Assembly (NCBI GenBank): GCA_963741955.1
Contig: CAVUKB010000007.1
Coordinates: 448,001 to 512,000 of the forward strand
Origin: an uncultured Acidobacteriota bacterium
GTDB lineage: Bacteria > Acidobacteriota > Thermoanaerobaculia > Gp7-AA8
DNA: 64,000 bases
Reading direction: 5' to 3'
Each line of letters begins with the position of its first letter. Within the stretch, counting starts at the first letter, position 1. The notes beneath the pieces were generated by a model that did no database searches, was not told the DNA's origin, and worked only from the letters and a program-made list of their open reading frames with translations. Both the position numbers and the translations under genes were made by a program. Of this stretch, positions 18,307-32,093 are shown piece after piece.

Positions 18307-19020
18307 ATGAGTCAGAAACGAGAGTCGGCGGCGTGTCAGATCTGCGGAACGGCAAAGCACGGCATGCTGCGAAGAGCGATGATCGTGCGCCCTGCCATCG
18401 CGGATCTCATTCGCGAGGAGAAGGGGTCGTTCGACGAACGGGGATGGATCTGTCTCGACGATCTCGACCGCCTGCAGGCGCGCTACGTCCACTCCCTCGT
18501 TGAAAGTGAAGAGGGAGAGCTGACCGCGCTGGATCTCGAAGTTCTCCGCAGCCTCGAGGAGCAGGAGATTCTCAGTCGGAACCCGGACGCCGTGTTCGAC
18601 GCGAAACTCTCTTTCGGCGATCGCCTTTCGGATCGCATCGCGGACTTCGGCGGCAGCTGGACCTTCATCATCATCTTCGCGATCCTTCTCTTCTCCTGGA
18701 TGCTGATCAACTCCGCGCTCCTGGTCGTCCATCCCTTCGACCCCTATCCGTTCATCCTTCTCAACCTGGTTCTCTCCACCCTCGCGGCGATCCAGGCGCC
18801 GGTGATCATGATGAGCCAGAACCGGCAGGAGGCGCGGGACCGCGAGCGCGCGGTGCACGACTATCAGGTGAACCTCAAGGCGGAGCTCGAGATCCGCCAG
18901 CTGCATCAGAAGATCGACCACCTTCTCTCGCATCAGTGGGAGCGGCTGGTGGAGATCCAGGAGATCCAGATGGAGCTGATGGAGGAGATGCGGAAGCCGA
19001 AGGGAAGCGGGACGAAGTAG
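18307..19020 (+). CDS. DUF1003 membrane protein
   Basis: FGGSWTFII, FDPYPFILLNLVLS, APVIMMSQNRQ, DYQVNLKAELEI. Confidence 0.9.
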   Translation: MSQKRESAACQICGTAKHGMLRRAMIVRPAIADLIREEKGSFDERGWICLDDLDRLQARYVHSLVESEEGELTALDLEVLRSLEEQEILSRNPDAVFDAKLSFGDRLSDRIADFGGSWTFIIIFAILLFSWMLINSALLVVHPFDPYPFILLNLVLSTLAAIQAPVIMMSQNRQEARDRERAVHDYQVNLKAELEIRQLHQKIDHLLSHQWERLVEIQEIQMELMEEMRKPKGSGTK

Positions 19021-19124
19021 TTGCCCGGTCGGTCTGCTCCGAAGATGTCCCGCGTTTACGCATCCCTGCTGCGTCCATCCGGAATTCGAATCTTCTTCCC
19101 CGCATTTTCCCCACTCGGATTCTC

Positions 19125-19736
19125 ATGTCCCAGACGCTCTTCCTCCTCTCTCCGGCGAATCTCCGGGGCGTTCGCGCGAAACAGCTCCTCTCCCCGCGGG
19201 CCGAGTTCTCCGCCGCGCGCGCCTATCGCTCGCCGGATGGTGTTCCGATCGAAGACGCGTTCTCGTTCATGAGTGCTCTCTATTTCCGCGGCAAGGTCGC
19301 GTATGCACGACGGTTCGCGTCGGTGCTCGACGAGGGGGCGAGCGGCGCGTTCGTGATCGCTCCCGGATTCGGCCTCGTGCCGCTGGGATGGCGCCTCACG
19401 CCCGAGCGGGTGAAGAGACTTCGCCGGATTCCGGTGGACCCGAGGCGTCCTGCCTACCGGAAGCCGCTCAATGACGCGGCGAAGCTTCTCGCGGAGCGTC
19501 TTCCGTCCGACGCGAAGGTGGTCCTCCTCGGCAGCGTCGCCACCGGAAAGTACGTCGACATTCTCTGGCCTCTCTTCGGGGATCGCTTCCGCTTCCCCCG
19601 CGCGTTCGCCGGAATCGGCGACATGAGCCGCGGAGCGTTGATGCTCCGCGCGGCGGCGTCGGGGGAGGAGCTCGAATACGTGCCGCTCGACGCGCAACGG
19701 TCGAAAGCGAGAGGCGCGAGGCTAGCTAGAGGCTAA
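19125..19736 (+). CDS. Conserved hypothetical protein
   Basis: Globular ORF with motifs FLLSPAN, FSFMSALYFRGK, VVLLGSVATGKY, GDMSRG. Confidence 0.7.
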   Translation: MSQTLFLLSPANLRGVRAKQLLSPRAEFSAARAYRSPDGVPIEDAFSFMSALYFRGKVAYARRFASVLDEGASGAFVIAPGFGLVPLGWRLTPERVKRLRRIPVDPRRPAYRKPLNDAAKLLAERLPSDAKVVLLGSVATGKYVDILWPLFGDRFRFPRAFAGIGDMSRGALMLRAAASGEELEYVPLDAQRSKARGARLARG

Positions 19737-19739
19737 AAG

Positions 19740-20078
19740 CGCGAGGCTCGAGGCTCGAGGCTAGAGAAGAGACGAGAGACGAGAGACGAGAGACGGGAGG
19801 CGAGAGAGAGGCGAGAGGCGAGAGGCGAGAGACGAGAGACGAGAGGCGAGAGGTGAGAGACGGGAGACGGGAGACGGGAGACGGGAGGCTAGAGAAGAGA
19901 CGAGAGACGAGAGGCGAGAGACGAGAGACGAGAGGCGAGAGACGAGAGACGGGAGGCTAGAGAAGAGACGAGAGACGAGAGGCGAGAGGCGAGAGGCGAG
20001 AGACGGGAGACGAGAGACGAGAGACGGGAGACGAGAGGCGAGAGACGAGAGACGAGAGGCGAGAGGCGAGAGACGAGA
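19740..20078. repeat. Heptanucleotide tandem repeat (GAGACGA/GAGGCGA/GAGACGG)n
   Basis: About 340 bp of purine-skewed 7-mers between convergent genes. Confidence 0.95.
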
Positions 20079-20162
20079 AACTGGAGGCTGGACGCTCGGG
20101 TAAATCGGTGTCTGGTTCGACCGAGCCCCGAGTCCCGAGTCCCGAGCCCCGAGCCTCGCGCT

Positions 20163-21797
20163 TCATCGCCAGTCGTCTTTCTTCTTCACCAGCTGATCGA
20201 TCGTCAGCATCCGCTCGCTCCCGTCGGTCTCACAGCGGAAGAGCGCGTGGTACCACCCCTTCATGGCGACCGGCCGGTACAGGAGTCCTCCGATCGCGAG
20301 GCATTGTCCGGAGACGAGCTTGAGAAAGACCTCCTCGTACGCGGAACGGGTGAGTCTGCGGTCGGGGAAAGGAATCGTCCGCTGAACGCTGCGACGTTCT
20401 CCTCGCGCTCGGCGCTGCGGCTCCGACAGCTGGCGTCCGGTTCTCGCCCTCCGATCCACATACCGTCCGGAGGAGGTGAGCAGCGACGAGCGTGCGGTGG
20501 TGCGTCGCGAGACGGGACGCGATGCATTCGACGCGGGCCGGGAAGGCGGCCGCCGTTTCGGGCGCGATCGAGAAGGCCGGGCCACCGGATCCGGGGTCCG
20601 CTCTGTGATCTCGTCGTCGTTCCGTTGTTTCTGGTCCGGTGTCGGATGCGTATGCGAGCGAAGCATCACGCTCGCGCGCTCCCGCTCGCGGCCGGCGACG
20701 TACTGGTCGAACGGAGGCTCCTTCCAGAGAGTCTTCCGCTCCGAAGCGAACGTTCGCGCCGCGACCGATCCGGTGAGCTCCGGGATTACGTGACCCCATC
20801 GGCAGAGGCGCCCGACGTCGTCGTACGCGAGCGGCCGGTCCTCGAGCTCGAGAAGGGATGGAGTTGATCCTCTCAATACCGAGAAGAGGAGACGGAAACT
20901 GAATGCGTCGGCATGTTTGCGGATCGCGGCAGCAAACGGAGTCACCGTCGCACACGCGAGCTCCCGGAGCGTCACCATCCGTCCGTCGTCGGTTCGCCAG
21001 CGGTCGTGATCGATGTCCGACGTGTAGGGACTCTTCGGATAGTGGAAGTCTTTGGTGAGCCATCCCTTGCGCGTGGTGTGTTTTCCGGGGATGACGCCGT
21101 CGAAGCGTGGAATGCCGTGCCACTCCAGTTCATCGAGGGTATACGACCGCCACGACATCACTTCGCGAACCATTCCGACCACACACGTCGCGGCGGCGAT
21201 CATCAGCAGCGGCTCGGGTGTGAAGTCTGCGGTGACCTCGATGCGGTTTCCTCGTGGCCGGACCCCGATGCCGGTGGAGCGGCGGTTGGTGGCGAGAATC
21301 ATCAATGGAGCCGGAAGGATGTAGGCGAGAAGGAGTGCGAGAGTGCGGACGTTGCGCTCCCGGTTCTGTTCCGCTCGCGGGACGTCGAACGAGACGTTGT
21401 AGTGCGCGCTGTATGCCTTCAGCCGGATCTCGTGATCGTTCCGGCGTCCCCAACCCGTCAATGCGTCGCGGACGAACGCGATCTGTTCCCACAGCGACCG
21501 GACCACGCGCGCGCTGCAGCCGGGAGCGATCTCGACCAGCGGGGTGACGACTTCGATGACCCCGCGGTCGAAGTAGACCGCTCCTCCGGTCGGCAGCTGG
21601 TACGACGAACGGGTCCGCTCGAGCAGAGGATCGGTGATGAACGCGGTCGGATGGCCCCAGTACGCACGCGGGTCGATCTCCTCGCCATCGAGAAAAACGT
21701 TGAACTCGGCTTCCATGCCGATCGCCGGGTGCTCGAGCCACTGCCTTCGCGAGGCTCGTTCCGACTCGAGATCGAATTTCGTTTCGAGGGGCATCAC
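20163..21797 (-). CDS. PafA/Dop-like (glutamine synthetase-fold carboxylate-amine) ligase family protein
   Basis: IGMEAEF ~ PafA GIETEF; RSSYQLPTGGAVYFDRGVIEVVTP ~ [32 protein letters not shown] ~ YGCHENY; NRIEVTAD ~ RRLHVIVGD. Confidence 0.7.
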   Translation of the reverse strand: MMPLETKFDLESERASRRQWLEHPAIGMEAEFNVFLDGEEIDPRAYWGHPTAFITDPLLERTRSSYQLPTGGAVYFDRGVIEVVTPLVEIAPGCSARVVRSLWEQIAFVRDALTGWGRRNDHEIRLKAYSAHYNVSFDVPRAEQNRERNVRTLALLLAYILPAPLMILATNRRSTGIGVRPRGNRIEVTADFTPEPLLMIAAATCVVGMVREVMSWRSYTLDELEWHGIPRFDGVIPGKHTTRKGWLTKDFHYPKSPYTSDIDHDRWRTDDGRMVTLRELACATVTPFAAAIRKHADAFSFRLLFSVLRGSTPSLLELEDRPLAYDDVGRLCRWGHVIPELTGSVAARTFASERKTLWKEPPFDQYVAGRERERASVMLRSHTHPTPDQKQRNDDEITERTPDPVARPSRSRPKRRPPSRPASNASRPVSRRTTARSSLLTSSGRYVDRRARTGRQLSEPQRRARGERRSVQRTIPFPDRRLTRSAYEEVFLKLVSGQCLAIGGLLYRPVAMKGWYHALFRCETDGSERMLTIDQLVKKKDDWR

Positions 21798-22017
21798 GAA
21801 TTCCGGGTACGGCGAATTGTGTTCGATTCAGAATGAAACGGGCCCGGCCACCGGGGGGGACGAGACAACGAGTCGCTCGGGATTCAGGCCGGACGTCTCT
21901 CGAGGTGGAAAGCAAACGCTGCGCCGGATCCGAGCGGCAGATACCGCTAGCCCCAATGGCCCGAACTTCGGGGAGGGATCCTTCGCTGCCCAGCACGCTG
22001 CGCCGGATCCCGGCTGA

Positions 22018-22045
22018 GCTACGGACGTTTCTACCGCGCAGACTC
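22018..22045 (+). repeat. Isolated right arm of the 159-bp MITE-like element
   Basis: GCTACGGACGTTTCTACCGCGCAGACTC identical to 54429-54456 arm sequence. Confidence 0.75.
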
Positions 22046-22094
22046 CTGAGGGAAGACGATGGGGAAATCCGGGCTGGCCTCCGGGCCAGTCGGC

Positions 22095-22862
22095 TCAGTC
22101 GGCGCCCGCCTCGTCACCGACCACGGGCTCGTCGGTCTCTCCGGGATCGCTCTCTCCCGGATCCGTCTCTCGCCGGTCCGGTTCCGAACGGCCCCGCCTC
22201 CGGTCTCCTCTCCGCCTCTCCTCGAACGCGAATCGCGGCTGCTGCTGTTGAACCTCCATCCGGTCCTCGCTCATCTCACGCGGGATCAGGAGGATGTAGC
22301 CGAGGTCGACATGGATGTGGTCGTCGGAGGTTCCCGGCTCGTGGCCGTACGGCATGACCCACAGCTCGTCCGAGATCTCGGAAAAGATCTTCCGGAAGCG
22401 CTCGATGGAAGACTCGTCCTGGAGAATGGTGGTTCCTACCCGGTAGATGTCCGCCGCGGTTCCCCACATGTGCGGCGTGCCGAGGTGTGCGAGCTGGTGT
22501 GCGGGCGAGCGGTACCCGCCGTTGACCGCGACGTGAACGGACATCCCCGCGGCGTCTCTCATCCGCTGCAGATACGAGGCGAGGAGGCGGGTGACACATG
22601 GAACGAATCGTGGCCATGCCTGAAGGCGAGGGCTCTCCTTGATGTCGACCAGGAGGAGCTCGCTCAAGCGGAAGTTCGGGGCGAGATCGACGTCGAGTGC
22701 TTCTTCCTTCGACTCGACCTCGTAGAAGTACCTCGGGAGACGATGGCGCCGTCCATTCTTGTCCCGGATCATCTCCCCGGGACGGAGAATCGACCGGAGC
22801 TCATCGTCCAGGTCGAACGCATCGACGACCTTAAGGCCCGATTCCTCCGGAATTTCACTCAT
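22095..22862 (-). CDS. Peptidase M15-type (D-Ala-D-Ala carboxypeptidase family) Zn metallohydrolase, no signal peptide
   Basis: NFRLSEL, NGGYRSPAH, PHMWGTAAD (H-x6-D), HIHVD; Arg-rich then acidic tail. Confidence 0.8.
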   Translation of the reverse strand: MSEIPEESGLKVVDAFDLDDELRSILRPGEMIRDKNGRRHRLPRYFYEVESKEEALDVDLAPNFRLSELLLVDIKESPRLQAWPRFVPCVTRLLASYLQRMRDAAGMSVHVAVNGGYRSPAHQLAHLGTPHMWGTAADIYRVGTTILQDESSIERFRKIFSEISDELWVMPYGHEPGTSDDHIHVDLGYILLIPREMSEDRMEVQQQQPRFAFEERRRGDRRRGRSEPDRRETDPGESDPGETDEPVVGDEAGAD

Positions 22863-23727
22863 TCCGCATCCCCGCCAACGCGGAGTAGATGTCGCGGGAA
22901 ATGTCGGCGACCGCTCCGCTGCGGCCGACTTCCGAAGGGAAGCTGGTCAGGACCACGAGCACGTAGGGCTTCCGCGCCTCGGGATAGACGATGCCCGCGT
23001 CGTGGTGCACGGTGGAGATGTTGCCGGTCTTGTGGGCCACGCGCGCGGCTTCCGGAAGTCCGGCGGGGATTCCGCTCCGATAGCGCTGATCGTGGAGAAT
23101 CTCGAGCATCGCATGCGAGGCCTCTTGCGAAAATGCGCGCCCCTCTTCGATGGTTCGCAGGAGCTGGAGCAGCCCGCCGGCAGTCACCTCATTGTTCAGT
23201 CCGGCGTCGAACGCCGCCTGGTCCTCGACCCCACGGAGAACTCTCATCCCGTGGATCTCGAGCTCGTCGAGCGCCAGCCGGATGGTGGAGATGCCGACCA
23301 CGTCGATCAGGAGATTCGTCGCCAGATTACTGGAGGTGGTGATCATGTGGTACGCGAGATCCCGCACCGACATCGTCTTGCCGATGTTCCCGAAGACCTC
23401 CGGGTCGGAGTCGGGAGAGTAGTCGAGCATGAACGGCTTCTGGTCGACGATGCTGTGAAAGCGGTTGCGGACGTGGACGGGATCGTCGAGAGAAAGCTCG
23501 CCGTGCTCGACCTGACGGAAGACGCCGAGAAGCACCGCCAGTTTCATCGTCGACGCGGCATGGAACCAGGAGTCGGCGCCGTATCCCCAATGGATCGTCG
23601 TCTCGTAATCGTAGAAAGCGATGCCGAGACCGTTCAGACGATGACGCTCTTTCGCTTCGAGCACGCTCGCATAGAGAGACAGCTCGCAGTTCGCGATCGA
23701 AGTCCCGTTCGCCTTCACCTCACTCAT
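22855..23727 (-). CDS. Class A beta-lactamase-fold serine hydrolase, no signal peptide
   Basis: AASTMK (SxxK), SSN (SDN-like), HKTG. Confidence 0.88.
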   Translation of the reverse strand: MSEVKANGTSIANCELSLYASVLEAKERHRLNGLGIAFYDYETTIHWGYGADSWFHAASTMKLAVLLGVFRQVEHGELSLDDPVHVRNRFHSIVDQKPFMLDYSPDSDPEVFGNIGKTMSVRDLAYHMITTSSNLATNLLIDVVGISTIRLALDELEIHGMRVLRGVEDQAAFDAGLNNEVTAGGLLQLLRTIEEGRAFSQEASHAMLEILHDQRYRSGIPAGLPEAARVAHKTGNISTVHHDAGIVYPEARKPYVLVVLTSFPSEVGRSGAVADISRDIYSALAGMRNE

Positions 23728-23734
23728 CGCTCGT

Positions 23735-24508
23735 TCAGTCCCCGGAGACCAGCAGTACCATTTTCCACGAACCGTTCCGTTTTTCGAAAGCGGCGCGATA
23801 GCCGACCGGCTGCCTTACGTATCTGTCCCGGACGAAACCATTCGCACCGTCGGGGATCCCGATTCCGATCCATTCCTTTCCGTCGGTCGCGGTCGGGGTG
23901 CCGTTGACGATCCTGACGATGTTGTGATCGAGGGTCGCGACGATCTTCGACTGGGGATCTGCGGCGTTGAACAGCGGCACACCGCCCTCGGTGATCACTC
24001 CGTACTGAAATCCATCGTACGCCGGAGGGAAGGTCTTGAACCAGTACGGAGCCCAGAAACGTCGCCGGCCGTCAGGGGTCTGTTCGAAAACTCCACCGTG
24101 GGTGATCACGTCCTGGAGCACGCTCCAGAGCGGACTTGCGGGCGTGGACGGGTTCCATCGCTGGCGGAACATCTCCAGTCCGTGGTCGCGAGGCCCGAAT
24201 CCGAGCCGGATGTCGGATGCGAGGAACGACTCGAGCTGGTGTGCATCGTGGCGCATCACCGTGGCGAGGAGGTCGCGCCGGTAGTCCATGAACGTGGGAT
24301 CCGACGGTGCCTGGTCGACCGGCGGGAGCTGCGGACCTTCCGCGCGGGGGATGGTCGAGTGTGAGGACTGCTGGTTGGTGCTCCCCTCGTCGATTGCGAT
24401 CTCGGGAGATCCGGGCGCCGGCTGAGACGTGCCGTCCGGAGAGCGGAGCTCGTTACTGCAGCCGAGGAGGGTGACGGCCAGTGCGCAGAGAAGCGCGGCG
24501 GAACGCAT
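23735..24508 (-). CDS. Lipoprotein with a probable C-terminal SH3-like domain
   Basis: Lipobox LLGC; KEWIGIGIPDGANGFVRDRYV; ends WKMVLLVSGD. Confidence 0.7.
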   Translation of the reverse strand: MRSAALLCALAVTLLGCSNELRSPDGTSQPAPGSPEIAIDEGSTNQQSSHSTIPRAEGPQLPPVDQAPSDPTFMDYRRDLLATVMRHDAHQLESFLASDIRLGFGPRDHGLEMFRQRWNPSTPASPLWSVLQDVITHGGVFEQTPDGRRRFWAPYWFKTFPPAYDGFQYGVITEGGVPLFNAADPQSKIVATLDHNIVRIVNGTPTATDGKEWIGIGIPDGANGFVRDRYVRQPVGYRAAFEKRNGSWKMVLLVSGD

Positions 24509-24702
24509 GTCACGACCCTCTCGTCGCGAGGAGGCCCGCGGCGAAGTCGGACCGGTACCGTGATGCGCGAGCGATCCGGCCGCGTGGAGAGCTCCTCTTC
24601 CGAAGGCGAGTGGACGGGAAAGCGATCTCTGAGTACATCGGTCTGCCATCCCGAGTGCAAGTTGCGGGCCCCGGAGCGGTCGAGGAGCGAGGCGGAACGG
24701 AA

Positions 24703-25488
24703 TCAACGTTTCCAGTCGTTCAGCGACCAGTCGTAGTCGTCGAATGCGAGCTCGATCCGCGACCCGGTGAGCGTCGCCCGTTCCGCCGGCGGCAGGTAGC
24801 GGGCGACGAAGTTTCCTCTTCCCGGGCCCCACTTCTCGAAATCGTCCGCGAACCAGTTCATGATTTTCGTGACGTGCAACACGACGTGATCGCCGCTCCG
24901 TTCGATCCGCGCGCCATTCGGTCCGTTCAGAAACGCCCGGGCCTGATCGTCCAGCTGTTCGTTCACCCGCGCTCCGACGTACGCCTCGGTGCGGATCGGA
25001 GGGCACGAGCGTGCCGCGCAGTTGATCGCAAAATGGATCCGCGGATCGTGAAAGCCTTCCCGGATCTTCTGGTTCTCGATCGTGTCGAGGGATATGGCGC
25101 CGTCGCCGAACGGGACGAACGGCTTCTTGAAGACGTTGAGTCGCACGAAAAGATCCGTGGAGAGATCCCGGATCGAACGGATCGGATAATGATCGACCAC
25201 GATTCCGACCACTGACGTGTTGTAGAGATTGATCCAGTACGCCAGCTGCTCGTCGTGGTCGAGCGCGGCGACGTCGACCTTCGCCAGTTCCTGCCGGAGG
25301 GCGCGGAGCGTCGCCGCGTCATGTGCGGCGATCCCCGCGTAATCCATGCCGTGCGCGGGGTCGTAGTACTTCGTGAGGATTCTGTTCCACGCGGAGTAGT
25401 CGGGCTCCGCGGCCATCGCCGACGAAGCTCCGATCAGGAGCGAAAGCGACAGAAACACGACGACCACAATTCGAGTTCTCGAGTGCAT
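24703..25488 (-). CDS. DUF547 domain secreted protein
   Basis: LAYWINLYN, DPRIHFAINCAARSCPP, KIMNWFADDF, YDWSLN. Confidence 0.9.
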   Translation of the reverse strand: MHSRTRIVVVVFLSLSLLIGASSAMAAEPDYSAWNRILTKYYDPAHGMDYAGIAAHDAATLRALRQELAKVDVAALDHDEQLAYWINLYNTSVVGIVVDHYPIRSIRDLSTDLFVRLNVFKKPFVPFGDGAISLDTIENQKIREGFHDPRIHFAINCAARSCPPIRTEAYVGARVNEQLDDQARAFLNGPNGARIERSGDHVVLHVTKIMNWFADDFEKWGPGRGNFVARYLPPAERATLTGSRIELAFDDYDWSLNDWKR

Positions 25489-25685: not shown

Positions 25686-26852
25686 TCAACGGCCGATCTC
25701 GTCGAGATAGCGGCCGATCCGCTCGATGCCCTCTCCGGCGCTCTGTGGATCGGTCGCGAACGAGATGCGGAGAAAGCCTTCTCCGCGTTTGCCGAATGCG
25801 ACGCCGGGCACCGTCAGGACTGCCGCCTCGGTCGCGACGGCGTGTGCGAATCCGGCGCTGTCGCACGTCGGGACCGGGACGAAGAGATAGAACGCGGCGG
25901 GCGGAGCTTCGACTTCTGCTCCGATGTAGCGCCGGGCAGCGAACACCGCAGCCTCGCGCTGTTGGGCGAATCGGGAGCGGAGTGACTCCAGCCATTGTCC
26001 GCGCCATTCGTCGCTCTCGAGAACGATCGTCGCCAGTGCCTGTGAGAACGTGGAGGCGCAGGTCGCGATGTATTGATGCGCGCGAATGATGGTGTGCATC
26101 CGCGGCTCGCGCGCGATCGCCCATCCGAGACGCAACCCGGTCATCGAGTACGCCTTCGACATTCCGTCGACGACCACGACATTCTCTCCCATCCCGATCA
26201 TCGACGGAGGAGCGGCGCCGTAGTGGATCTCGCGATAGACCTCGTCCGACACCACGACCACTCCCCGTTCCGCGGCCATGGCGGCGATCGCCCGAAGGGT
26301 CGGAGCGGCGAGAACGCCGCCGGTCGGATTGGAGGGGGAGTTGACCACGATCAATTTCGTGCGGGACGAGAGGAGCGGAGCGAGCGCCGCGACGTCGAGA
26401 GTCCACCTCTCCGGATCGAGCGGATACGGCACCGGTACGCCGCCTGCGAGCCGCGCAAGGGTCGGATAGGCGACGAATCCCGGATCGGGGACCAGCACTT
26501 CGTCACCCGGATCGACGAACGACTGAAAGACGGAGTACAGCGCTTCCTCCGTCCCGGCGGTGATGCAGATCTCGGATCTCGGATCGTAGGAGGGGGCGAA
26601 GTGTGAAGACACGAGCTGGCGCAACGCGGGATCACCCGCGTTCGCCGAGTAGTGCCACGACGCTTCGCCGGCAGCGCGACGGGCCATGTCGCGGAAAGTC
26701 TCATCCGGCTCGATGTTCGGCTCGCCGATTCCGAGATTGATCGAGAACGGGGTCGCGAGCGCGTTGATCTGCCGGATCAGAGAGATCTCGATGCCGTCGA
26801 ACCGCGATGCGGTGCGGATGCCGCTCGCTTTCCCGCGTTTCGAGTGCGTCAC
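25686..26852 (-). CDS. PLP-dependent aminotransferase class I/II (probable N-succinyl-DAP aminotransferase by context)
   Basis: NLGIGEP, NSPSNPTG, SDEVY, SKAYSMTGLRLG; last gene of the dap operon. Confidence 0.88.
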   Translation of the reverse strand: MTHSKRGKASGIRTASRFDGIEISLIRQINALATPFSINLGIGEPNIEPDETFRDMARRAAGEASWHYSANAGDPALRQLVSSHFAPSYDPRSEICITAGTEEALYSVFQSFVDPGDEVLVPDPGFVAYPTLARLAGGVPVPYPLDPERWTLDVAALAPLLSSRTKLIVVNSPSNPTGGVLAAPTLRAIAAMAAERGVVVVSDEVYREIHYGAAPPSMIGMGENVVVVDGMSKAYSMTGLRLGWAIAREPRMHTIIRAHQYIATCASTFSQALATIVLESDEWRGQWLESLRSRFAQQREAAVFAARRYIGAEVEAPPAAFYLFVPVPTCDSAGFAHAVATEAAVLTVPGVAFGKRGEGFLRISFATDPQSAGEGIERIGRYLDEIGR

Positions 26853-26864
26853 GCCCCGCTCCGT

Positions 26865-27695
26865 TCAGCGCAATGCTGCTTCGAGCGCCGTCGCCGCATC
26901 CGTCTTGTCGTCACGGTACTTCACGATCACCGGGCTCGCGATGTGGAGCTGATGCTCCTCGGCGAATTTTCCCTTCAGCGGACGCGATCCGGGAATCACC
27001 ACCGCGCCGTACGGGATCTCGAGCGGCCGTTCCTCGGTCTTGCGGTAAATCTGGCCGCGCACCGCGTCGTACACCGGAGTGGAGCCGGTGATCACCACAC
27101 CCGCTCCGATCACCGCCTTCGAGCGGACGATGGTTCCTTCGTAAATGCCGCTGTTTCCTCCGACAACCACGTCGTCTTCGACGATCACCGGAAGATTTCC
27201 GACCGGCTCGAGGACTCCGCCGATCTGCGCTCCCGCGCTCAGGTGGACCCGCTTGCCGATCTGTGCGCACGAGCCGACCAGCGCATGCGAGTCGATCATC
27301 GTTTCCTCGTCGACGTACGCACCGACGTTCACGTACGCCGGAGGCATCATCACGACGCCCGGGGCGACGAAGGCTCCTCGACGGACCGCGGTGCCGCCGG
27401 GGACGATCCGGATGTTCTCGTCTTTCCGGAAACGGCGCGCCGGAATGGTGTCTTTGTCGATGAATGAGAGAGATCCGGAGGCGAACTCGGCGAGTACACC
27501 GATTCGGAACGCGTTGAGGATCCCCTCCTTGACCCAGCTCTGTGCCTTCCAGACACCCATGTCGTCCCGCTCGGCGGCGCGGACGTTTCCCTTTTCGAGC
27601 TCGGTGAGAAAGAGTCCGATGATCCGGACCGCTTCCCCACGGTTCGCGGCCGTGTCGATGGAGGCCATCCGGTGTTCGATGGAGTCAACCAGCAT
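26865..27695 (-). CDS. dapD: Tetrahydrodipicolinate N-succinyltransferase
   Basis: [47 protein letters not shown]. Confidence 0.95.
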
Positions 27696-27696
27696 G

Positions 27697-28626
27697 TCAT
27701 GCTCCCCTGGAGGCCGGAAGAAGTTCGCATTGGGCGAGGATCTCCCGCAGCCGTGTACGGTTCGCGTCGCTCATCGGAGCGAGCGGCGCGCGGAGAAGAT
27801 CGTTCTCGATGAGATTCATCATCTTCATCGCAGTCTTCACCGGCCCCGGATTGGATTCGATGAAATTTCCTTCCATCAGCGGAAGGATACGCTCGTGGAC
27901 GTCGCGCGCCTTCCTGAAATCTCCCGAGAGTGCCGCGGAGACCATCTGCTTCATCAGTCCTGGAATCTCGTTCGCGGCCACGGAGATCACTCCATCCGCT
28001 CCGAGAGCGATCATCGGAAGAGTCCACGAGTCCTCGCCGCTGACTACGAGAAAGCCGGGATCGCGTTCACGCAGGATGGTCATGATCTGATCGAGATTTG
28101 CGGACGCCTCCTTCACTCCGATCACATTCGGGATCTCTCTCGCGATGCGGAGCGTAGTCGCCGCGGTCATGTTCGTTCCGGTGCGGCCGGGGACGTTGTA
28201 GAGGATCATCGGGAAGCCGGTCTTCACTTTCTCCAGCGCCTCGGCTTGTGCGGAGAAGTGCCGGAGGAGTCCGTCGGGCGTCGGCTTGTTGTAGTACGGA
28301 GTGATGGTGAGGATGCCGTCCGCCCCGCGGTCAAGGGAGGCGATGGCGAAGTCGACCGCTTTGGTGGTGGAGTTGCTGCCGGCGCCTGCGAGAACGGGAA
28401 CGCGCCCGTTCGCCCGCTTCACGACGATCTCGATCACCCGAAGATGCTCGTCGTGCGAGAGCGCAGGGTTCTCGCCGGTGGTTCCACAGGGGACGAGAAA
28501 ATCCGTTCCCTGATCCACGTGCCAGTCGACCAGCCTTGCGAGAGCGGCCTCGTCGATCGACTCGTCGTCCTTGAACGGCGTGACGATCGCCACGCCGACT
28601 CCGCGGAATCTCTCGTCCTTCTCCAT
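27697..28626 (-). CDS. dapA: 4-hydroxy-tetrahydrodipicolinate synthase
   Basis: [40 protein letters not shown]. Confidence 0.96.
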
Positions 28627-28674
28627 CAGATCGTTCCTCCCGATTGCGGATGCGGTCGGGTTGCCGGCCCGGGG

Positions 28675-29352
28675 TCAGAGTCCCAGCAGTTCCTCGAGGG
28701 TGAAGAAGCCGCGCCGGCCCACCAGCCGTTCCGCGGCAACCACGGCGCCTCGTGCAAAGCCGGTGCGTCCGCGAGCCCGGTGTGTGATTTCTATCAGATC
28801 GTCGGCGGAATCGAAAAAGAGGGTGTGCAGGCCGAATTCGTTTCCGACCCGCGAGGAGGCGATCGGAGGTGCGAAGGCGCTGCCGCTCCCCATGGTGACC
28901 TCCTGCGCGATCCGCTTCGCGGTGCCGCTCGGCGCATCCTGCTTCTGCGCATGGTGGCGCTCCTCGATCCCGGCCGCATAGCCTTCGAACCGGGAGAGGA
29001 TTACTGCGGCGTGGCGGGCGAGCGCGAAGACCGCGAGCGCACCGAGTGAAAAGTTCGCGGAGTGGACGACCCCGATGCTCTTCTCCAGGCAGAGACGGCG
29101 AACCTCTTCCAGTTCTCCGTCCCAGCCGGTGGTACCGACGACGAGGTTCACTCCCGCGATGCACGCGGTTTCGGCGACCGCGTTGATCGCGTTCGCATGC
29201 GAGAAGTCGATGATCACATCGGCGTCGCCGAGCGCGTTGGGGTCGGGGGGGTGGGTCTGATGGAACTTTGCTACGATCGAGTGTCCCCGCTCTCCTGCCA
29301 CCGCTTCGATCGCCTTTCCCATCCTGCCGTATCCGTTCAGCGCGATCTTCAT
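28675..29352 (-). CDS. dapB: 4-hydroxy-tetrahydrodipicolinate reductase
   Basis: GYGRMG, VVGTTG, ANFSLG, ERHHAQKQDAPSGTA, FARGA. Confidence 0.95.
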   Translation of the reverse strand: MKIALNGYGRMGKAIEAVAGERGHSIVAKFHQTHPPDPNALGDADVIIDFSHANAINAVAETACIAGVNLVVGTTGWDGELEEVRRLCLEKSIGVVHSANFSLGALAVFALARHAAVILSRFEGYAAGIEERHHAQKQDAPSGTAKRIAQEVTMGSGSAFAPPIASSRVGNEFGLHTLFFDSADDLIEITHRARGRTGFARGAVVAAERLVGRRGFFTLEELLGL

Positions 29353-30725
29353 ACCGCCTCCAGCACCGGCGCTTCGAAGAGCGCCCGGTGGACTTGATGC
29401 ATCGCGCGGTCCGCATCGCTCTCCGGAAGAACGATGCTGAGATTGAGCCCCGAGCTGCCGAGCGAGATCATCTTCAGGTGAGCGCCTGCCAGGGCGCGGA
29501 GAGCGGTCGGAAGCGTGACACCGTCCGTCACAAGATCCCGGCCGACGATCGCGAGGATGGTCTGGTCTTCTTCGATTCGAAGCCGGGCGAATTCCTCCAG
29601 GGCACGAACCAGCTCTTCAATCCGCTCGCCGCGGTCGATCGTCAGAGAGACTGAAACCTCGGAAGTGGTGATCAGGTCGACCGGAACCTGCCACTGCTCG
29701 AAGACCCGAAAGATCCGGGCGAGGAAACCGTGCGCGCCGAGCATCCTGCTCGAGGTCAGCTCGACGACGGTGATCCCCTTCTTCATTGCGATGGCGCGGG
29801 CGCCGCGGTGCTCCTGGTCGCCCTCCCACGTGATCAGCGTTCCGGGGCTGGAAGGGTTGTGGGTATTCAGCACCCGGATCGGAATCTTCCGCTCGACCGC
29901 CGGCGCGATGGTTTTCGGATGGAGAACCTTCGCACCGAAATACGCGAGCTCGGCGGCCTCGACGTAGGAGATCCGGTCGATGATCTTTGCGGCCGGAATC
30001 ACCCGTGGATCCGCAGTCATCATGCCGTCGACGTCGGTCCAGATCTGAATCTCGTCCGCGCCGGTCGCCGCCCCGACGATCGCAGCGCTGTAATCGCTTC
30101 CGCCGCGGCCGAGGGTCGTGGTCGCACCGCGGACGGACCGCCCGATGAAACCTCCCATCACCGGGATGTGCTTCCGCTGCACCTCGGAGAGAAGGCTCTG
30201 CTGCGCCGCGGCGGTGGTTTCGGCCATCAGGGGCTCGGCGTCTCCGAAGCGCTCGTCCGTGACTACGACCTCCTCCGAGTCGACGTGAATGCCGGCCAGG
30301 GTCCTGAGGCGCATGGTGTAGGAAAAGAGAACGGACGAAAGCTTCTCGCCGATGGCGACGATCTTGTCGTTCGCGCGCGGGGTCACTTCTCCGACCAGCG
30401 CGATGCCGCGGAGAATGTCGAGGATCTGGTCGGTGTGACGGCGGATCTGCGCGCGGAACGATTCCAGATAATCCGATTTCTGACCGATGAGCTCGAGTCC
30501 GATGTTCTCGTGCCGGTCGCGGACGGCTTCGACCAGCGCCGGCAGCTCGTCCACCCGTCCCGCTGCGGCAACGCGGGTCGCTTCCACCAGGTGATTGGTG
30601 ATGCCGGCGAGAGCGGAAACGATGACGATCGGGTCGCGATCACGTGCGGCCGCGACGATGTCGATCGCCTGCCGCATGTGGAGCGCATCGCCGACGGACG
30701 TGCCTCCGAATTTGATCACGATCAT
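29349..30725 (-). CDS. lysC: Aspartate kinase (lysine-sensitive type III-like)
   Basis: KFGGTSVG, TTLGRGGSDYSA, WTDVDG, FGAKVLHP, ACT domains. Confidence 0.95.
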   Translation of the reverse strand: MIVIKFGGTSVGDALHMRQAIDIVAAARDRDPIVIVSALAGITNHLVEATRVAAAGRVDELPALVEAVRDRHENIGLELIGQKSDYLESFRAQIRRHTDQILDILRGIALVGEVTPRANDKIVAIGEKLSSVLFSYTMRLRTLAGIHVDSEEVVVTDERFGDAEPLMAETTAAAQQSLLSEVQRKHIPVMGGFIGRSVRGATTTLGRGGSDYSAAIVGAATGADEIQIWTDVDGMMTADPRVIPAAKIIDRISYVEAAELAYFGAKVLHPKTIAPAVERKIPIRVLNTHNPSSPGTLITWEGDQEHRGARAIAMKKGITVVELTSSRMLGAHGFLARIFRVFEQWQVPVDLITTSEVSVSLTIDRGERIEELVRALEEFARLRIEEDQTILAIVGRDLVTDGVTLPTALRALAGAHLKMISLGSSGLNLSIVLPESDADRAMHQVHRALFEAPVLEAV

Positions 30726-30835
30726 GGGGCGGTATCCTCGCACGTGTGGCCGGCGCTGAAAAGCGCGACCGTTCAAGAGCTCGTTTGCAGATTCCGGGCC
30801 GCGGCGAGAGAGCTTCGCGTCCGGAACTGCCGGGC

Positions 30836-30876
30836 GAGCCCGCGTTTCCCACACCATCTCTGCTGCGGAGCCGGAT
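30836..30876 (+). repeat. Dispersed terminal-type repeat (GCCCGCGTTTCCCACACCATCTCTGCTGCGGAGCCGGAT) between asd and lysC
   Basis: Matches 38088-38128 and, in part, the reverse complement of 11973-11997. Confidence 0.7.
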
Positions 30877-30920
30877 CATGGTCGCCCTTGCGCTGCGAGG
30901 GCCGACTTGCGTGCGCGAGC

Positions 30921-32051
30921 TTACGGCAGCATGCCGCGGGCCTGCAGGAGCTCCGCGTTGAGAATCGCCGCGCCGGCGGCGCCACGGATGGTGTTGTGCA
31001 CCAGCGCCACCATTCTCGCGTCGAGGATCGGGCAGGGACGAAGTCTCCCGATCGAGACCGCCATCCCCTTTTCCCGGTCGCGGTCGAGGCGCGGCTGGGG
31101 CCGGTCCTCGTCCGTCAGATAGTGGATCGGATGCTCCGGGGCGGAAGGAAGCCCGAGGCGCTGCGGCTCCCCGGCGAACGACTCGATCGCGAGGCGCACG
31201 TCTTCGAGGAGCTTTTCGAGCCGGAAGGTGCGGAGCAGATCTTCCCGATTGCGGAACGCGAACGAGATGCAGATCAGATGACCGTCGATCACCGGGACGC
31301 GGTTGGTCTGGGCGGAAATGGTCATCTCCGCGTCGAAGAAGCGGCCGGTCGCCCAGCGGCCGAGGATTTTCCGCGGCTCTGTCTCGACCTTGTCCTCCTC
31401 GCCGGAGATGGAGGGGATCACGTTGTCGAGGATCGCATACGACGCGACGCCCGAGTACCCCGCGCCGGAGATCGCCTGCATCGTCGTCGCGTGAAGCAGC
31501 GAGATCCCGTGCTGCCGCTCGATCGGTGCGATGGCGAGAGCCAGGCCGACCGTCGAACAGTTCGGATTGGTCACGATGTAGCCCTGACCCCCGCGGCGCT
31601 TCTTCTGCACCTCGATCGCGTCGAGATGCTCCGGATTGATCTCCGGGATGAGGAGCGGGACGTCCGGATCCATCCGGTGATTCTTCGAATTGGAGACGAC
31701 CGCACATCCGCGGCCGGCGTAGAGATCCTCCGCTTCACCGGCGACCGACGAATCGAGAGCCGAGAAGACGAGTGTCGATTCGAGCTCCGCTCCGAGTGGC
31801 ATGACCCGCAAGGCCGCGGCCGATTCAGGCAACGGCGTGTCGAGACGCCACGACGCGGCGTCGCCGTATTCGCGCTCGGCGCTCCTTTCGGAAGCGACCA
31901 GCTCGTGAATCCGGAACCAGGGGTGCTTCTCCAGCAGCTGGATGAATCGCTGTCCGACCGATCCGGTCGCGCCGAGAACGGCGACCGGGATCCGTCCCGC
32001 CGCTGGCGCCGCGGAGCGGCTCTCTTCAGTCACTGGATCTGCTGTTTCCAT
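30921..32051 (-). CDS. asd: Aspartate-semialdehyde dehydrogenase (archaeal/eukaryal-like type)
   Basis: VLGATGSVGQRF, PLLIPEINPEH, NPNCST, QAISGAG, HNTIRGAAG. Confidence 0.95.
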   Translation of the reverse strand: METADPVTEESRSAAPAAGRIPVAVLGATGSVGQRFIQLLEKHPWFRIHELVASERSAEREYGDAASWRLDTPLPESAAALRVMPLGAELESTLVFSALDSSVAGEAEDLYAGRGCAVVSNSKNHRMDPDVPLLIPEINPEHLDAIEVQKKRRGGQGYIVTNPNCSTVGLALAIAPIERQHGISLLHATTMQAISGAGYSGVASYAILDNVIPSISGEEDKVETEPRKILGRWATGRFFDAEMTISAQTNRVPVIDGHLICISFAFRNREDLLRTFRLEKLLEDVRLAIESFAGEPQRLGLPSAPEHPIHYLTDEDRPQPRLDRDREKGMAVSIGRLRPCPILDARMVALVHNTIRGAAGAAILNAELLQARGMLP

Positions 32052-32093
32052 CACTCCACCCGGTGCAAGATTCGTGTCGTTCGCGGTTGCCAG

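Follow-up and report, generated by a model that had tools for sequence, protein, structure and literature searches.

The locus described here raises the question of what a relative of PafA and Dop might do beside two peptidases of the type that usually acts on the cell wall. The three reading frames lie on the minus strand of the window, the 64,000-nucleotide stretch of acidobacterial DNA that was analysed as a whole, where the initial annotation had placed them (Table 1). That annotation had proposed a ligation or tagging system, a writer plus eraser working on a protein, a muropeptide or a metabolite. Our analysis confirms the observation and supports the interpretation in part. The locus is a three-gene operon encoding two cytoplasmic cell-wall-type peptidases and an unannotated PafA/Dop relative, it occurs in thousands of soil bacteria, and its probable role is the processing of cell-wall peptides, not protein tagging.

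Table 1. Position and nature of the features at the three-gene locus and upstream of it
Feature	Coordinates	Strand	Description
Gene 1 (P0003)	22855..23727	-	290 aa cytoplasmic serine hydrolase, PBP-A / class-A beta-lactamase-like fold
Gene 2 (P0002), whole ORF	22095-22862	-	LAS/M15-fold protein
Gene 2 catalytic part, residues 1-196	22275..22862	-	LAS/M15-fold metallopeptidase-like domain
Gene 2 disordered C-terminal tail	22098..22274	-	reads PREMSEDRMEVQQQQPRFAFEERRRGDRRRG, then acidic end
Gene 2/gene 3 spacer, 297 nt	21798..22094	.	without conserved small ORF
Gene 3 (P0001), whole ORF	20163-21797	-	544 aa PafA/Dop-like protein
Gene 3 N-terminal domain, residues ~20-345	20763..21740	-	carboxylate-amine ligase (GS/GCL/PafA/Dop) fold
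Gene 3 linker (basic, disordered, variable), residues ~346-474	20376..20762	-	repeated [SDE]RR motifs
Gene 3 C-terminal small beta-barrel, residues ~475-544	20166..20375	-	introduced by IPFPDRRLTRSAYE
asd, aspartate kinase, dapA, dapD, class I/II aminotransferase	25686..32054	-	DAP/lysine biosynthesis, upstream; Pfam

The gene 3 protein carries the five PafA/Dop motifs in the order that had been reported for it: G27-M-E29-A-E31, L68-P-T-G71-G72-A-V-Y75-F-D77, E82-V-V-T85, H132-Y-N134 and R185-I-E-V-T-A-D191. As all five are invariant in an alignment of 27 family members, chance matches are excluded. These sequences (~55% identity) share ~190 invariant positions, every putative metal and phosphate ligand included, and the conserved residues comprise E29, E31, Y75, D77, E82, T85, H132, N134, R172/R173/R180/R182/R185 and E187. 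Since the homologues start with MP, translation probably begins at the ATG at 21794. Sequence searches of Pfam, NCBIfam and the PDB returned no match, and the PF03136 (Pup_ligase) profile did not match even at E 1. The AlphaFold model adopts the carboxylate-amine ligase fold, with PafA (4bjr, 1.9e-7) and Dop (7oyh, 5.3e-7) as top Foldseek matches and Dop 9cku_G (Z 17.7), the YbdK-like 1tt4 (17.4) and PafA 4bjr (17.4) as VIA matches, so that the proposed membership of the GS/GCL/PafA fold is borne out. The GS-like beta-sheet cradle in common with Dop and PafA spans 267-268 aligned residues (rmsd 3.5-3.6) and bears GhExE and G-[AG]-x-x-Y-x-D, followed by E-x-x-T, H-x-N and R-[IL]-x-V. With fetched PafA/Dop sequences, hhalign gave a single alignment with GxExE and Y-x-D-x4-E-x2-T in one register, at a probability of just 4-10%, at which sequence-level homology is not significant.

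The Mg ligands of Dop are Glu8, Glu10, Tyr92, Glu99, His155 and His241, and D94 is catalytic, according to PMC8599861. Invariant residues of the gene 3 protein, E29, E31, Y75, E82, H132 and D77, match Glu8, Glu10, Tyr92, Glu99, His155 and D94 of that account in order; going by motif order only, His241 (R-L-H-V) would be replaced by Glu187 (R-I-E-V). Gene 3 has the Asp-to-Glu spacing (+5) and the subsequent T-P of Dop-type sequences, and shares with the PafA-type sequence L175 a distance of 44 residues from GxExE to Y-x-D, which means that the Dop-loop is absent. Dop is a hydrolase (depupylase/deamidase), and the Asp-to-Glu spacing in gene 3 is Dop-like, not PafA-like. Unlike in Dop and PafA, the segment from H-x-N to R-x-x-V is ~40 residues shorter, the C-terminal part consists of a basic linker and a small barrel, and two peptidases always accompany the protein. 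YbdK/GCS2 proteins (PF04107) are equally close in fold by Z (1tt4 17.4; GCLs 14-15) and alike in catalytic domain size, but gene 3 has no PF04107 match, hhalign against ten GCS2 sequences gave a probability of 0.4%, and the GCS2 sequences fetched read PELxxSxxEVGT and do not contain the G-G-x-x-Y-x-D of gene 3. Gene 3 represents a new family inside a known superfamily. Its linker is disordered (pLDDT <50 across residues 383-484) and varies in sequence, yet is Arg-rich throughout the family; in short forms of ~400 aa it is missing and the N-domain joins the barrel directly. The barrel is kept in all full-length members seen, and its VIA matches, at Z 5-6 to SH3/Tudor/WYL/KOW-like barrels (PafBC 6sj9 5.9, CarD 5.3), identify a generic fold only.

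Gene 1 had been described as an SxxK/SxN/KTG hydrolase, which its match to Beta-lactamase2 (PF13354, E 3.2e-50) corroborates. The motifs read STMK, SSN and KTG, and 112 of 114 homologues retain them. Among proteins of solved structure, those closest in sequence are 4ewf (1.5e-19) and Tll2115, the PBP-A of Thermosynechococcus elongatus (2j9o, 4e-17), the latter with a full-length alignment and the same SxxK, SxN and KTG motifs. In contrast to PBP-A and class A enzymes, gene 1 fails to reach the class A cut-off of NCBIfam (106 bits on the equivalog versus 200), is invariably accompanied by the M15-like and PafA/Dop-like genes, and lacks a signal peptide, as had been claimed for both peptidases: a signal-like hydrophobic stretch before SxxK was found in none of the 114 homologues (maximal 12-residue Kyte-Doolittle mean 1.77). 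Thus, the enzyme should act in the cytoplasm. According to PMC11189452, PBP-A is a DD-carboxy/endopeptidase that is highly specific for muropeptides whose D-iso-Glu is amidated (D-iGln).

The assignment of gene 2 to the M15 zinc peptidases holds by model fold and falls below threshold by profile (Peptidase_M15_3, PF08291: E 0.015, 15.8 bits, cut-off 23.2); a PDB sequence search found no match, and Foldseek none at E 0.001 or better. The best VIA match of the AF2 model (pLDDT 84.9; 53-61 in the tail) is the Streptomyces M15A Zn D-Ala-D-Ala carboxypeptidase 1lbu (Z 8.7, rmsd 2.6, 110 aligned, 26% identity), followed by the Hedgehog N-domain, Ply500, LysB4, VanX, VanXY and LdcB; the LAS peptidases other than 1lbu (VanX/VanXY, LdcB, MepK, phage L-Ala-D-Glu peptidases) reach Z 5-6.4. 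The motifs H131-x6-D138 and D181-H182-x-H184-x-D186 correspond to the H-x6-D and D/E-x-x-H of this group, H131, D181, H182, H184 and D186 are invariant in 34/34 aligned proteins, and Atlas neighbours carry the names Peptidase M15A or MepK-like. The N-terminus is acidic and no signal peptide is present; the protein is presumably cytoplasmic, like VanX. It differs from the LAS peptidases in an extra N-terminal region of ~60 residues and in an Arg-rich tail restricted to this clade, whose motif PREMSEDRMEVQQQQPRFAFEERRRGDRRRG is kept among Thermoanaerobaculia-type homologues and missing from the short-form ones. In the short-form clade, moreover, 63/67 proteins have Asn in place of the canonical Zn-ligand Asp, which questions normal metallopeptidase activity there. 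By their nearest relatives (PBP-A; 1lbu, VanX, VanXY, LdcB and L-Ala-D-Glu peptidases), both peptidase families of the trio are enzymes of peptidoglycan peptides.

The three genes belong together. The reported 8-nt overlap of the peptidase genes was recovered at 22855-22862, and trio loci often show stop/start overlaps of -8, -4 or -1 nt. The spacer before gene 3 contains merely short and antisense ORFs and gave no Rfam match; elsewhere this gap is variable (median 91.5 nt; -4 to +65 nt in short-form loci). The order hydrolase, M15 protein, ligase is adjacent and colinear in 66/71 Thermoanaerobaculia-type loci that have 1800 nt or more of upstream sequence and in 47/47 divergent metagenome loci with >1500 nt upstream. 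In G168, from a second acidobacterial class (43% identical), the trio is flanked by unrelated genes, its reading frames abutting or overlapping. Co-occurrence, which the initial annotation had left to be checked, is thus near-invariant across deep divergence, and the trio is probably one conserved, co-translated, cytoplasmic module. The finding itself came through each of the challenges set out with that annotation, on fold, co-occurrence and a Pup locus.

Upstream on the same strand, an aminotransferase is found in 45 of 52 Thermoanaerobaculia-type loci, in 42 of them together with dapD, and its gap to the trio is <250 nt in 27; the dapD of the window scores 302 bits on NF008808 (cut-off 204). 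In the L161-like subclade, Mpl is encoded downstream and convergently in 22/37 loci (L161 itself: TIGR01081, 399 bits, cut-off 388.7), and an SBP_bac_5 protein with a permease, indicative of a peptide ABC importer, upstream in 12/21; where relatives of the L161 protein are named, they belong to Gemmatimonadaceae/Gemmatimonadota. All 22 Mpl-positive loci fall into a single 65%-identity cluster, the DAP context is limited to the Thermoanaerobaculia clade, and the flanks are unrelated and variable in other lineages. Therefore, either association could be inherited synteny. Among the three substrates initially considered, these DAP, Mpl and importer contexts favour the muropeptide, while protein tagging is unsupported.

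A Pup-independent protein modification, in which the PafA-like enzyme would join a carboxylate to protein lysines and a peptidase would remove or mature it, appears improbable. The donor might be the C-terminal Glu of a protein or peptide, and the Arg-rich tail of either the M15 protein or the ligase itself is a candidate. The Foldseek ranking and the core motif in common with PafA and Dop are compatible with such a role, as are the conserved disordered Arg-rich segments of the ligase and, in this clade, of the M15 protein, and the Tudor/SH3-like barrel, a typical macromolecule-binding module. The genome, 99.1% complete, has no mpa/arc, and whole-genome searches found neither Pup_ligase (PF03136) nor Pup (PF05639) nor a 20S proteasome, the sole PF00227 match being HslV; thus, there is no canonical Pup-proteasome locus for gene 3 to serve, which likewise fits a Pup-independent system. 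However, none of the window's reading frames terminates in GGQ or GGE, as had been noted before, and the neighbourhood of the trio yielded no conserved small ORF that could encode a tag. The short-form clade wholly lacks the M15 tail and fuses the ligase N-domain straight to the barrel, with the trio still intact, and where tails exist they finish in variable residues. The partner families cut D-amino-acid peptides, not isopeptide-linked proteins. Together with the Dop-like spacing and the missing Pup_ligase profile match, this leaves the proposed tagging by writer plus eraser without support. Even less probable is a role of the Thermoanaerobaculia trio in the succinylase branch of DAP synthesis, one of the two hydrolases replacing the N-succinyl-LL-DAP desuccinylase DapE and the ligase handling the acyl or amino group. 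It would fit the position directly after dapD and the aminotransferase, and a genome with DapF in which the one DapE model searched (NF009557) reaches at best 138.7 bits (cut-off 284). Yet the trio is equally conserved far from any dap gene, ten M20-family matches, one at 16545-18263, could serve as DapE, and the pathway has no step needing an ATP-dependent amide ligase.

That gene 3, and in the short-form clade also gene 2, might be a non-catalytic binding or regulatory protein on an enzyme fold seems the most remote of these readings. The Zn-ligand substitution in short-form M15 proteins, the family member P0136, which lacks GxExE, and the failure of gene 3 profile searches to match any enzyme family would agree with it; the invariant ligand positions in genes 2 and 3, in contrast, indicate purifying selection on the active sites. 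More weight, though still rather unlikely, has a D-amino-acid or gamma-glutamyl peptide from outside peptidoglycan, for example an antibiotic or non-ribosomal peptide that is taken up and then detoxified or catabolised, or a small gamma-glutamyl metabolite made by the ligase and recycled by the hydrolases. The trio is self-contained and has unrelated, variable neighbours outside two lineages, the gene 3 family is abundant in soil metagenomes, and gamma-glutamyl-amine synthetases and Glu-Cys ligases are among its GS-fold relatives; the Atlas auto-name of one short-form cluster is 'Glutamate--cysteine ligase family protein'. Furthermore, partner-less gene 3 paralogues adjoin other peptidases (M19 dipeptidase, PepQ twice, a class-C beta-lactamase-fold protein), general dipeptidases among them. 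De novo neighbour clustering, on the other hand, revealed no recurring NRPS, ATP-grasp, exporter or regulatory gene beside the trio, the recurrent contexts being only DAP biosynthesis, Mpl, the peptide importer and DUF1697, and the closest characterised kin of both hydrolases cut peptidoglycan peptides.

We therefore tentatively prefer, at somewhat less than even confidence, a module that works on muropeptides in the cytoplasm, trimming their D-Ala ends and acting at the D-Glu position. We infer every substrate and reaction direction in this scheme from the folds, motifs, operon and contexts described above. The peptidases adjoining the partner-less gene 3 paralogues speak for it as well. The trio would target peptides with D-amino acids and gamma-linked glutamate, most likely peptidoglycan stem peptides (L-Ala-gamma-D-Glu-mDAP-D-Ala-D-Ala and trimmed or amidated forms), recycled from the own wall or imported. 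Gene 1 would remove the terminal D-Ala as a DD-carboxypeptidase, and gene 2 might cut a further bond as an LD-carboxypeptidase, L-Ala-D-Glu peptidase or D-Ala-D-Ala dipeptidase. Gene 3, with bound nucleotide, Mg and the conserved Asp, might act at D-Glu. In this peptide-linked Glu one carboxylate is free and the other is an amide, a local chemistry like that of the C-terminal Glu/Gln of Pup, and the reaction would be hydrolysis of gamma-D-Glu-mDAP or deamidation of D-iGln to D-iGlu if Dop-like, ligation if PafA-like. The barrel may hold the peptide and the Arg-rich segments bind a polyanion or partner, although such disorder and an SH3/Tudor-like barrel are unusual in a small-molecule enzyme and would fit a macromolecular substrate.

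Recycling by LdcA, MpaA, Mpl and MppA-Opp in E. coli, and by analogy VanA-VanX-VanY, combines a cytoplasmic DD/LD-peptidase, a gamma-D-Glu-DAP amide enzyme and a ligase. In one subclade the trio similarly adjoins mpl and a family-5 peptide-binding protein. All protein families differ, with a serine PBP-A-like fold in place of S66 and a GS-fold enzyme in place of M14 MpaA or an ATP-grasp ligase, and the trio activities are predicted. The window genome already has two LdcA (S66) homologues, and its mpl (406 bits) lies ~140 kb from the trio; as AnmK and MurT were not found in it, neither complete E. coli-type recycling nor amidation of D-iGlu in the bacterium's own wall is evident. The presence of Mpl nevertheless makes re-use of murein peptides possible, and the products of the trio may enter either tripeptide re-use through Mpl or the DAP/lysine pool.

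Gene 3, the PafA/Dop-like member of the minus-strand trio, encodes a new family of a known superfamily, and this family resides in a new, fixed three-gene arrangement together with a serine hydrolase (gene 1) and a LAS/M15-like protein (gene 2). The five PafA/Dop motifs that the initial annotation had read from gene 3 are all found in the proposed order, and each motif residue is invariant in an alignment of 27 family sequences sharing about 55% identity. Within this alignment, a strongly conserved N-terminal domain (approximately residues 20-345) is followed by a variable, disordered, Arg-rich linker and then by some 70 conserved C-terminal residues, which start with IPFPDRRLTRSAYE. The AlphaFold model, which comprises helices at residues 277-381 and a C-terminal barrel, has a mean pLDDT of 64.9 due to the linker, while the blocks of the N-terminal domain mostly reach 75-93. 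For the N-terminal domain, PafA (4bjr_B, E 1.9e-7) and Dop (7oyh_A, 5.3e-7) were the top two Foldseek matches, and YbdK-like proteins, gamma-glutamylmethylamide synthetase, Glu-Cys ligase and glutamine synthetases occupied the lower ranks. A structure search independent of Foldseek returned Dop (9cku_G; Z 17.7, rmsd 3.5, 267 aligned), the YbdK-like protein 1tt4_A (Z 17.4, rmsd 3.5, 252 aligned) and PafA (4bjr_A; Z 17.4), then Glu-Cys ligases (Z 12-15) and glutamine synthetases (about 10). Based on both searches, the N-terminal domain is predicted to adopt the carboxylate-amine ligase fold. In the model, gene 3 shares with PafA and Dop a GS-like N-terminal domain whose antiparallel beta-sheet forms a cradle; the fold is common to GCS2/YbdK as well, and as 1tt4_A is tied with PafA and Dop, Z-scores by themselves cannot tell PafA/Dop from GCS2 as the relative of gene 3. 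The PafA alignment of the second search covers model residues 21-518, a span that includes the disordered linker and over which the domains are packed with low confidence. For the C-terminal part, the matches were limited to small barrels of a generic kind (WYL of PafBC, Tudor, KOW and CarD; Z 5-6). A PilZ or c-di-GMP assignment, considered for the RRxxxR-like motifs in front of the barrel, was rejected because there was no PilZ match at E <=1 and [DN]xSxxG did not fit.

Profile comparisons place the protein outside the described families. Gene 3 matched neither Pup_ligase (PF03136) nor GCS2/YbdK (PF04107) at E <=1, and the profile of the 27 homologues gave only chance matches against the PDB (E 0.1 or worse), with no PafA or Dop chain among them. 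In hhalign, the family was aligned to PafA/Dop with a probability of 4.4%, or 9.9% (E 0.0032) with 50 family sequences, and to ten GCS2 sequences with a probability of 0.4% (E 0.15). The method operates near its limit here, as GCS2 and PafA/Dop, which are known relatives, score 0.6% against each other. Despite the weak probability, the sole local alignment of gene 3 with PafA/Dop has the same register as the motif match; global mode yielded a meaningless end-to-end alignment. Gene 3 is, by the profile test, a new family of the carboxylate-amine ligase superfamily outside Pup_ligase.

One Dop study names Glu8, Glu10, Tyr92, Glu99, His155 and His241 as Mg ligands and D94 as the residue activating the water (PMC8599861), and another gives the Dop sequence V93-D94-H95-A96 ... 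S101-T102-P103, with an additional Val after the Asp in PafA (PMC7947786). Residues E29, E31, Y75, D77, E82 and H132 of gene 3 are invariant and, by motif order, are the candidate counterparts of the metal ligands and the catalytic Asp of Dop. The sixth ligand appears to differ, with His241 of Dop (R-L-H-V) replaced by Glu187 (R-I-E-V), as judged from the order of the motifs. For further comparison we used members from other Acidobacteriota, five of the Dop type and one of the PafA type (20 letters around the motif). The Dop-type sequences read NGARFYVDHAHPEFSTAEC and the gene 3 counterpart TGGAVYFDRGVIEVVTPLVE. The motif G-[AG]-x-x-Y-x-D is the same in gene 3 and in both types, and its Y-x-D is absent from the ten GCS2 sequences. 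The Asp-to-Glu spacing of +5, followed by T-P, is that of Dop. GxExE and Y-x-D are 44 residues apart, as in the PafA-type sequence, and gene 3 therefore has no Dop-loop. Taken at the sequence level, the catalytic core of gene 3 appears to resemble that of Dop most.

This Dop-type core occurs without Pup or proteasome. The initial annotation saw none of the usual Pup-proteasome genes in the window, and in the whole genome (5.44 Mb, 99.1% complete) profile searches identified no Pup_ligase (PF03136), no Pup and no GCS2, while the sole PF00227 match is HslV. Within the window, no frame ends in GGQ or GGE. Among 301 sampled Acidobacteriota genomes, PF03136 is present in 15, with 0/5 from the window's family and 0/1 from its order.

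Features of the trio and its surroundings
Feature	Position	Strand	Description
RES-domain ORF	13552-14361	+	PF08808, E 2.4e-28
M20-family peptidase	16545-18263	-	572 aa
DUF1003 membrane protein	18307-19020	+	E 5.6e-43
Conserved ORF	19128-19736	+	about 200 aa; no Pfam family
Tandem repeat	19768-20078		7-nt unit AGAGACG, about 45 copies, 84% matches
Short array	20121-20155		CCGAGCC x5
Gene 3, PafA/Dop-like ligase	20163-21797	-	544 aa; no Pfam, NCBIfam or PDB sequence match
Gene 2, LAS/M15-like protein	22095-22862	-	255 aa; Peptidase_M15_3 (PF08291) sub-threshold, E 0.015
Gene 1, serine hydrolase	22855-23727	-	290 aa; Beta-lactamase2 (PF13354), E 3.2e-50
Lipoprotein-like ORF	23735-24235	-	inside ORF 23735-25006; no Pfam family

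Gene 1 exceeds the cut-off of its Pfam family by far (170.9 bits, cut-off 22). It stays below that of the NCBIfam class A equivalog (106 bits, cut-off 200) and is therefore not filed as a beta-lactamase. Its closest solved sequences are 4ewf and, next to it, PBP-A (Tll2115) of Thermosynechococcus, which is reported to be a DD-carboxypeptidase/endopeptidase highly specific for muropeptides that carry an amidated D-iso-Glu (PMC11189452). The motifs SxxK, SSN and [KH][TS]G are kept in 112 of the 114 gene 1 homologues from the fetched loci. The lack of a signal peptide, already pointed out in the initial annotation, holds throughout this set: judged by hydrophobicity, no signal-like N-terminal stretch occurs in any of the 114 proteins, and there is no space for a longer N-terminus since the ORF begins 8 nt past the upstream stop. 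The 8-nt overlap of genes 1 and 2 described there was found as well, and this is also the most frequent overlap in loci of the Thermoanaerobaculia type.

For gene 2, the score against PF08291 (15.8 bits) remains under the cut-off of 23.2, and no match was obtained against NCBIfam or PDB sequences. A model built from 34 homologues (pLDDT 84.9) likewise gave nothing at E <=0.001 in Foldseek, where hedgehog N-domains, Ply500 and 1lbu were the best rows. In the independent structure search, its best match was the Streptomyces Zn D-Ala-D-Ala carboxypeptidase 1lbu_A (Z 8.7, rmsd 2.6, 110 aligned, 26% identity), after which only LAS proteins followed down to Z of about 4, namely the hedgehog N-domain, LysB4, Ply500, VanX, VanXY, LdcB, VanY and MepA. 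The protein has the Zn motif H-x6-D ... H (H131, D138, H184), and the 34 sequences share H122, H131, D181, H182, H184 and D186 without exception. Within the window's clade, 70 of 72 proteins retain Asp138, the canonical Zn ligand. In metagenome loci of the short form, which has a ligase of about 400 residues without basic linker and a gene 2 product without Arg-rich tail, this Asp is changed to Asn in 63/67 M15-like proteins (L087-L166; e.g. L161:5263-5895). The exchange represents a clade-wide change of a metal ligand, all other candidate ligands being invariant and the active site being otherwise conserved.

That the three genes belong together was apparent from their recurrence elsewhere. 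The full gene 3 protein has at least 2636 relatives at E <=0.001 (7999 candidates scored), and its N-terminal domain matches 348 cluster representatives among 1.84 billion. Relatives are encoded in 192 stretches of species-representative genomes; all of the 80 loci kept stem from Thermoanaerobaculia or Acidobacteriota MAGs, as do the named sources among the 120 gene 3 relatives listed, whose only given name is 'hypothetical protein' and which carry no Pfam domain. Genes 1, 2 and 3 are adjacent and colinear, in this order, in 66 of the 71 Thermoanaerobaculia-type loci with at least 1800 nt upstream. The five exceptions are two loci without partners in the stretch covered (L003, L038), one with the gene 1-gene 2 pair downstream on the other strand (L016), one with the pair 6 kb upstream (L031) and one in which gene 1 has moved away by 1.2 kb (L055). 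The family is present in 8 of the 301 sampled Acidobacteriota genomes, including 5/5 of the window's family and 1/1 of its order; outside this order, it occurs in no other family of the class and in a single genome of another class (G168). There, all three genes are present, their frames abut or overlap, and they are flanked by a PQQ dehydrogenase and a molybdopterin oxidoreductase; the ligase of about 400 aa has its N-terminal domain fused directly to the barrel, and the M15 protein is tail-less.

A metagenome scan seeded with short forms revealed 557 relatives, from which 80 loci were kept, and the trio is colinear in all 47 of those with more than 1500 nt upstream. Clustered at 90% identity, the ligases of the metagenome loci form 40 groups; at 60%, they form 6. 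One of these ligases, that of L161, has at least 5398 matches at E <=1e-20 (8000 candidates scored), with named relatives in Gemmatimonadaceae, Gemmatimonadota and Longimicrobium. The 240 relatives listed for gene 3 and the L161 ligase lack Pfam domains, and any name they carry is 'hypothetical protein'. For both the ligase and the M15 protein, the Atlas neighbours include Gemmatimonadota, Acidobacteriota and Verrucomicrobiota, which we regard as a lead only. Thus, the co-occurrence on which the initial annotation had built its proposal is borne out well past the level expected from common descent of close relatives, since the trio recurs in another class and in divergent metagenome loci.

Of the five genomes from the window's family, four (G083, G040, G070, G216) encode a second, partner-less ligase-like copy of 48-58% identity (L083-L086). 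Such paralogues, including three of these four copies, adjoin genes for an M19 dipeptidase, PepQ (twice) and a class-C beta-lactamase-fold protein. A further feature of the window's clade are Arg-rich segments in two of the proteins. The M15 protein ends in PRE[IM]SEDRME-x-PQE-x-RPRFAFEERRR-x-x-RR, and in the ligase [SDE]RR repeats precede the barrel. Both segments are missing from the short forms, where ERRxxxERR repeats occur in one subclade at the C-terminus of the ligase only. A strict co-variation of the two segments was dismissed, as ERRxxxERR tails occur in some short-form ligases whose M15 partners have none. The same applies to a genome-wide targeting signal, as FxFEERR and PFPDRR are found in the genome only in these two proteins, besides unrelated chance frames.

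The neighborhood of the trio differs between lineages. In the window, asd, aspartate kinase, dapA, dapD and an aminotransferase gene precede it on the same strand. Among the 52 Thermoanaerobaculia-type loci that extend for 4500 nt or more ahead of gene 1, 45 have an aminotransferase gene upstream on this strand within 4 kb; the gap is below 250 nt in 27 of the 45, and dapD is also present in 42. For the short forms, flanking ORFs were clustered de novo and then counted in a targeted manner. This identified a convergent Mur-ligase gene downstream in 22/37 loci and an SBP_bac_5 protein with an ABC permease upstream in 12/21. The Mur ligase of L161 scores 399 bits against the Mpl equivalog TIGR01081 (cut-off 388.7) and 302.7 bits, below cut-off, against MurC; all Mpl-positive loci belong to a single, Gemmatimonadota-like cluster at 65% identity. 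A DUF1697 gene (PF08002) directly follows the ligase gene on the same strand in 37/64 short-form loci (L161:7376-7903). In that subclade, the gene may belong to the trio as a fourth component; none was seen near the window's trio. In other lineages, the flanks are variable and unrelated. The window's genome carries mpl about 140 kb from the trio, two S66 (LdcA-like) genes and DapF. Searches of this genome found no AnmK and no MurT, and due to the latter D-iGln in the cell's own wall is not evident.

Several additional features surround the locus. Just past the ligase stop lie a 7-nt tandem repeat and a second, short array. The conserved ORF beyond them is convergent to the ligase gene, and its homologues (60-69% identity) adjoin the ligase in 8/80 Thermoanaerobaculia-type loci, seven directly downstream on the same strand and one (L016) upstream on the opposite strand. 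The DUF1003 gene is located between this ORF and the M20 peptidase gene, the product of which is extended at its N-terminus by about 170-240 residues. Between aminotransferase gene and trio, a lipoprotein-like ORF begins at an internal start, MRSAALLCALAVTLLGCS, within a longer frame; tblastn with a mis-framed query matched no other locus. The RES-domain protein belongs to a group known as the toxin part of RES-Xre toxin-antitoxin pairs. An Rfam scan of 15000-34000 gave no match, and promoter and terminator scans of 19000-26000 gave counts equal to shuffle expectation.

The trio combines two putatively cytoplasmic enzymes from families that cut D-Ala ends or stem peptides with a Dop/PafA-like enzyme under strict operon linkage. 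It appears in two contexts, independent of each other and each specific to a lineage: genes of DAP synthesis in the first, and Mpl together with a peptide importer in the second. PafA and Dop act on a peptide-linked Glu or Gln bearing a free carboxylate. In muropeptides, the amine of the D-Glu is joined to L-Ala and its gamma-carboxyl to DAP, with the alpha-carboxyl free or amidated, and by analogy this D-Glu may be regarded as the nearest small-molecule counterpart of the C-terminal Glu/Gln of Pup. Based on the peptidase families, the Dop/PafA-like chemistry, the operon linkage and the two contexts, we favour, as a reading somewhat short of probable, that the trio forms a cytoplasmic muropeptide-processing module, all substrates of which we infer. 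Gene 3 would then hydrolyse or deamidate in a Dop-like manner, as favoured by the Dop spacing, or else ligate. Against such a module, the DAP and the Mpl/importer contexts are each limited to a clade, and LdcA homologues are already present in the genome. We also consider that the trio acts on another D-amino-acid or gamma-glutamyl peptide, which we hold to be rather unlikely but still of appreciable weight.

The Arg-rich segments and the barrel also speak against a muropeptide module, as they hint at a macromolecular partner. The initial annotation had proposed a writer-plus-eraser module acting on a non-Pup substrate (protein, muropeptide or small metabolite); of these options, we take protein tagging to be improbable. 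A role in replacing DapE is more improbable still. The window's genome encodes DapD and DapF, and one DapE model (NF009557) gave no match above cut-off in it; the M20-family peptidase near the trio scores below every DapE/ArgE cut-off. The replacement of the Zn ligand by Asn in the short-form M15 proteins is a further point against the muropeptide module. A non-catalytic role would be hardly credible.

A more far-reaching form of the muropeptide reading, which we judge unlikely, is that gene 3 represents the first PafA/Dop-type enzyme to act on peptidoglycan peptides instead of Pup, recognising the peptide-linked D-Glu of muropeptides in an ATP-dependent fashion. In its boldest version, gene 3 would be a ligase that joins L-Ala-D-Glu and DAP to L-Ala-gamma-D-Glu-mDAP, or that amidates D-iGlu, which would provide a route to Mpl substrates without MurD/MurE or MurT. 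Alternatively, it would cleave or deamidate the D-Glu position of the muropeptide, similarly to Dop.

To our knowledge, PafA and Dop have so far been known solely as writer and eraser of pupylation, and we know of no intermediate of known function in their descent from glutamine-synthetase-like enzymes. Among the search results from the open full-text literature, none dealt with the gene 3 family or the trio, and neither the ligase-like nor the M15-like protein is covered by a curated Pfam or NCBIfam profile. The named family members belong to Thermoanaerobaculia and Gemmatimonadota, both of which are common soil groups. Even if the muropeptide reading is wrong, the strict conservation of the trio flags a pathway worth assaying. 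If it is true, the trio would constitute new enzymology of peptidoglycan recycling or scavenging in phyla in which this pathway is unexplored, and would offer an ancestor-like activity for the pupylation enzymes that is open to testing. Should gene 3 indeed act on peptidoglycan peptides, its family would mark the metabolic stock that gave rise to the pupylation enzymes.
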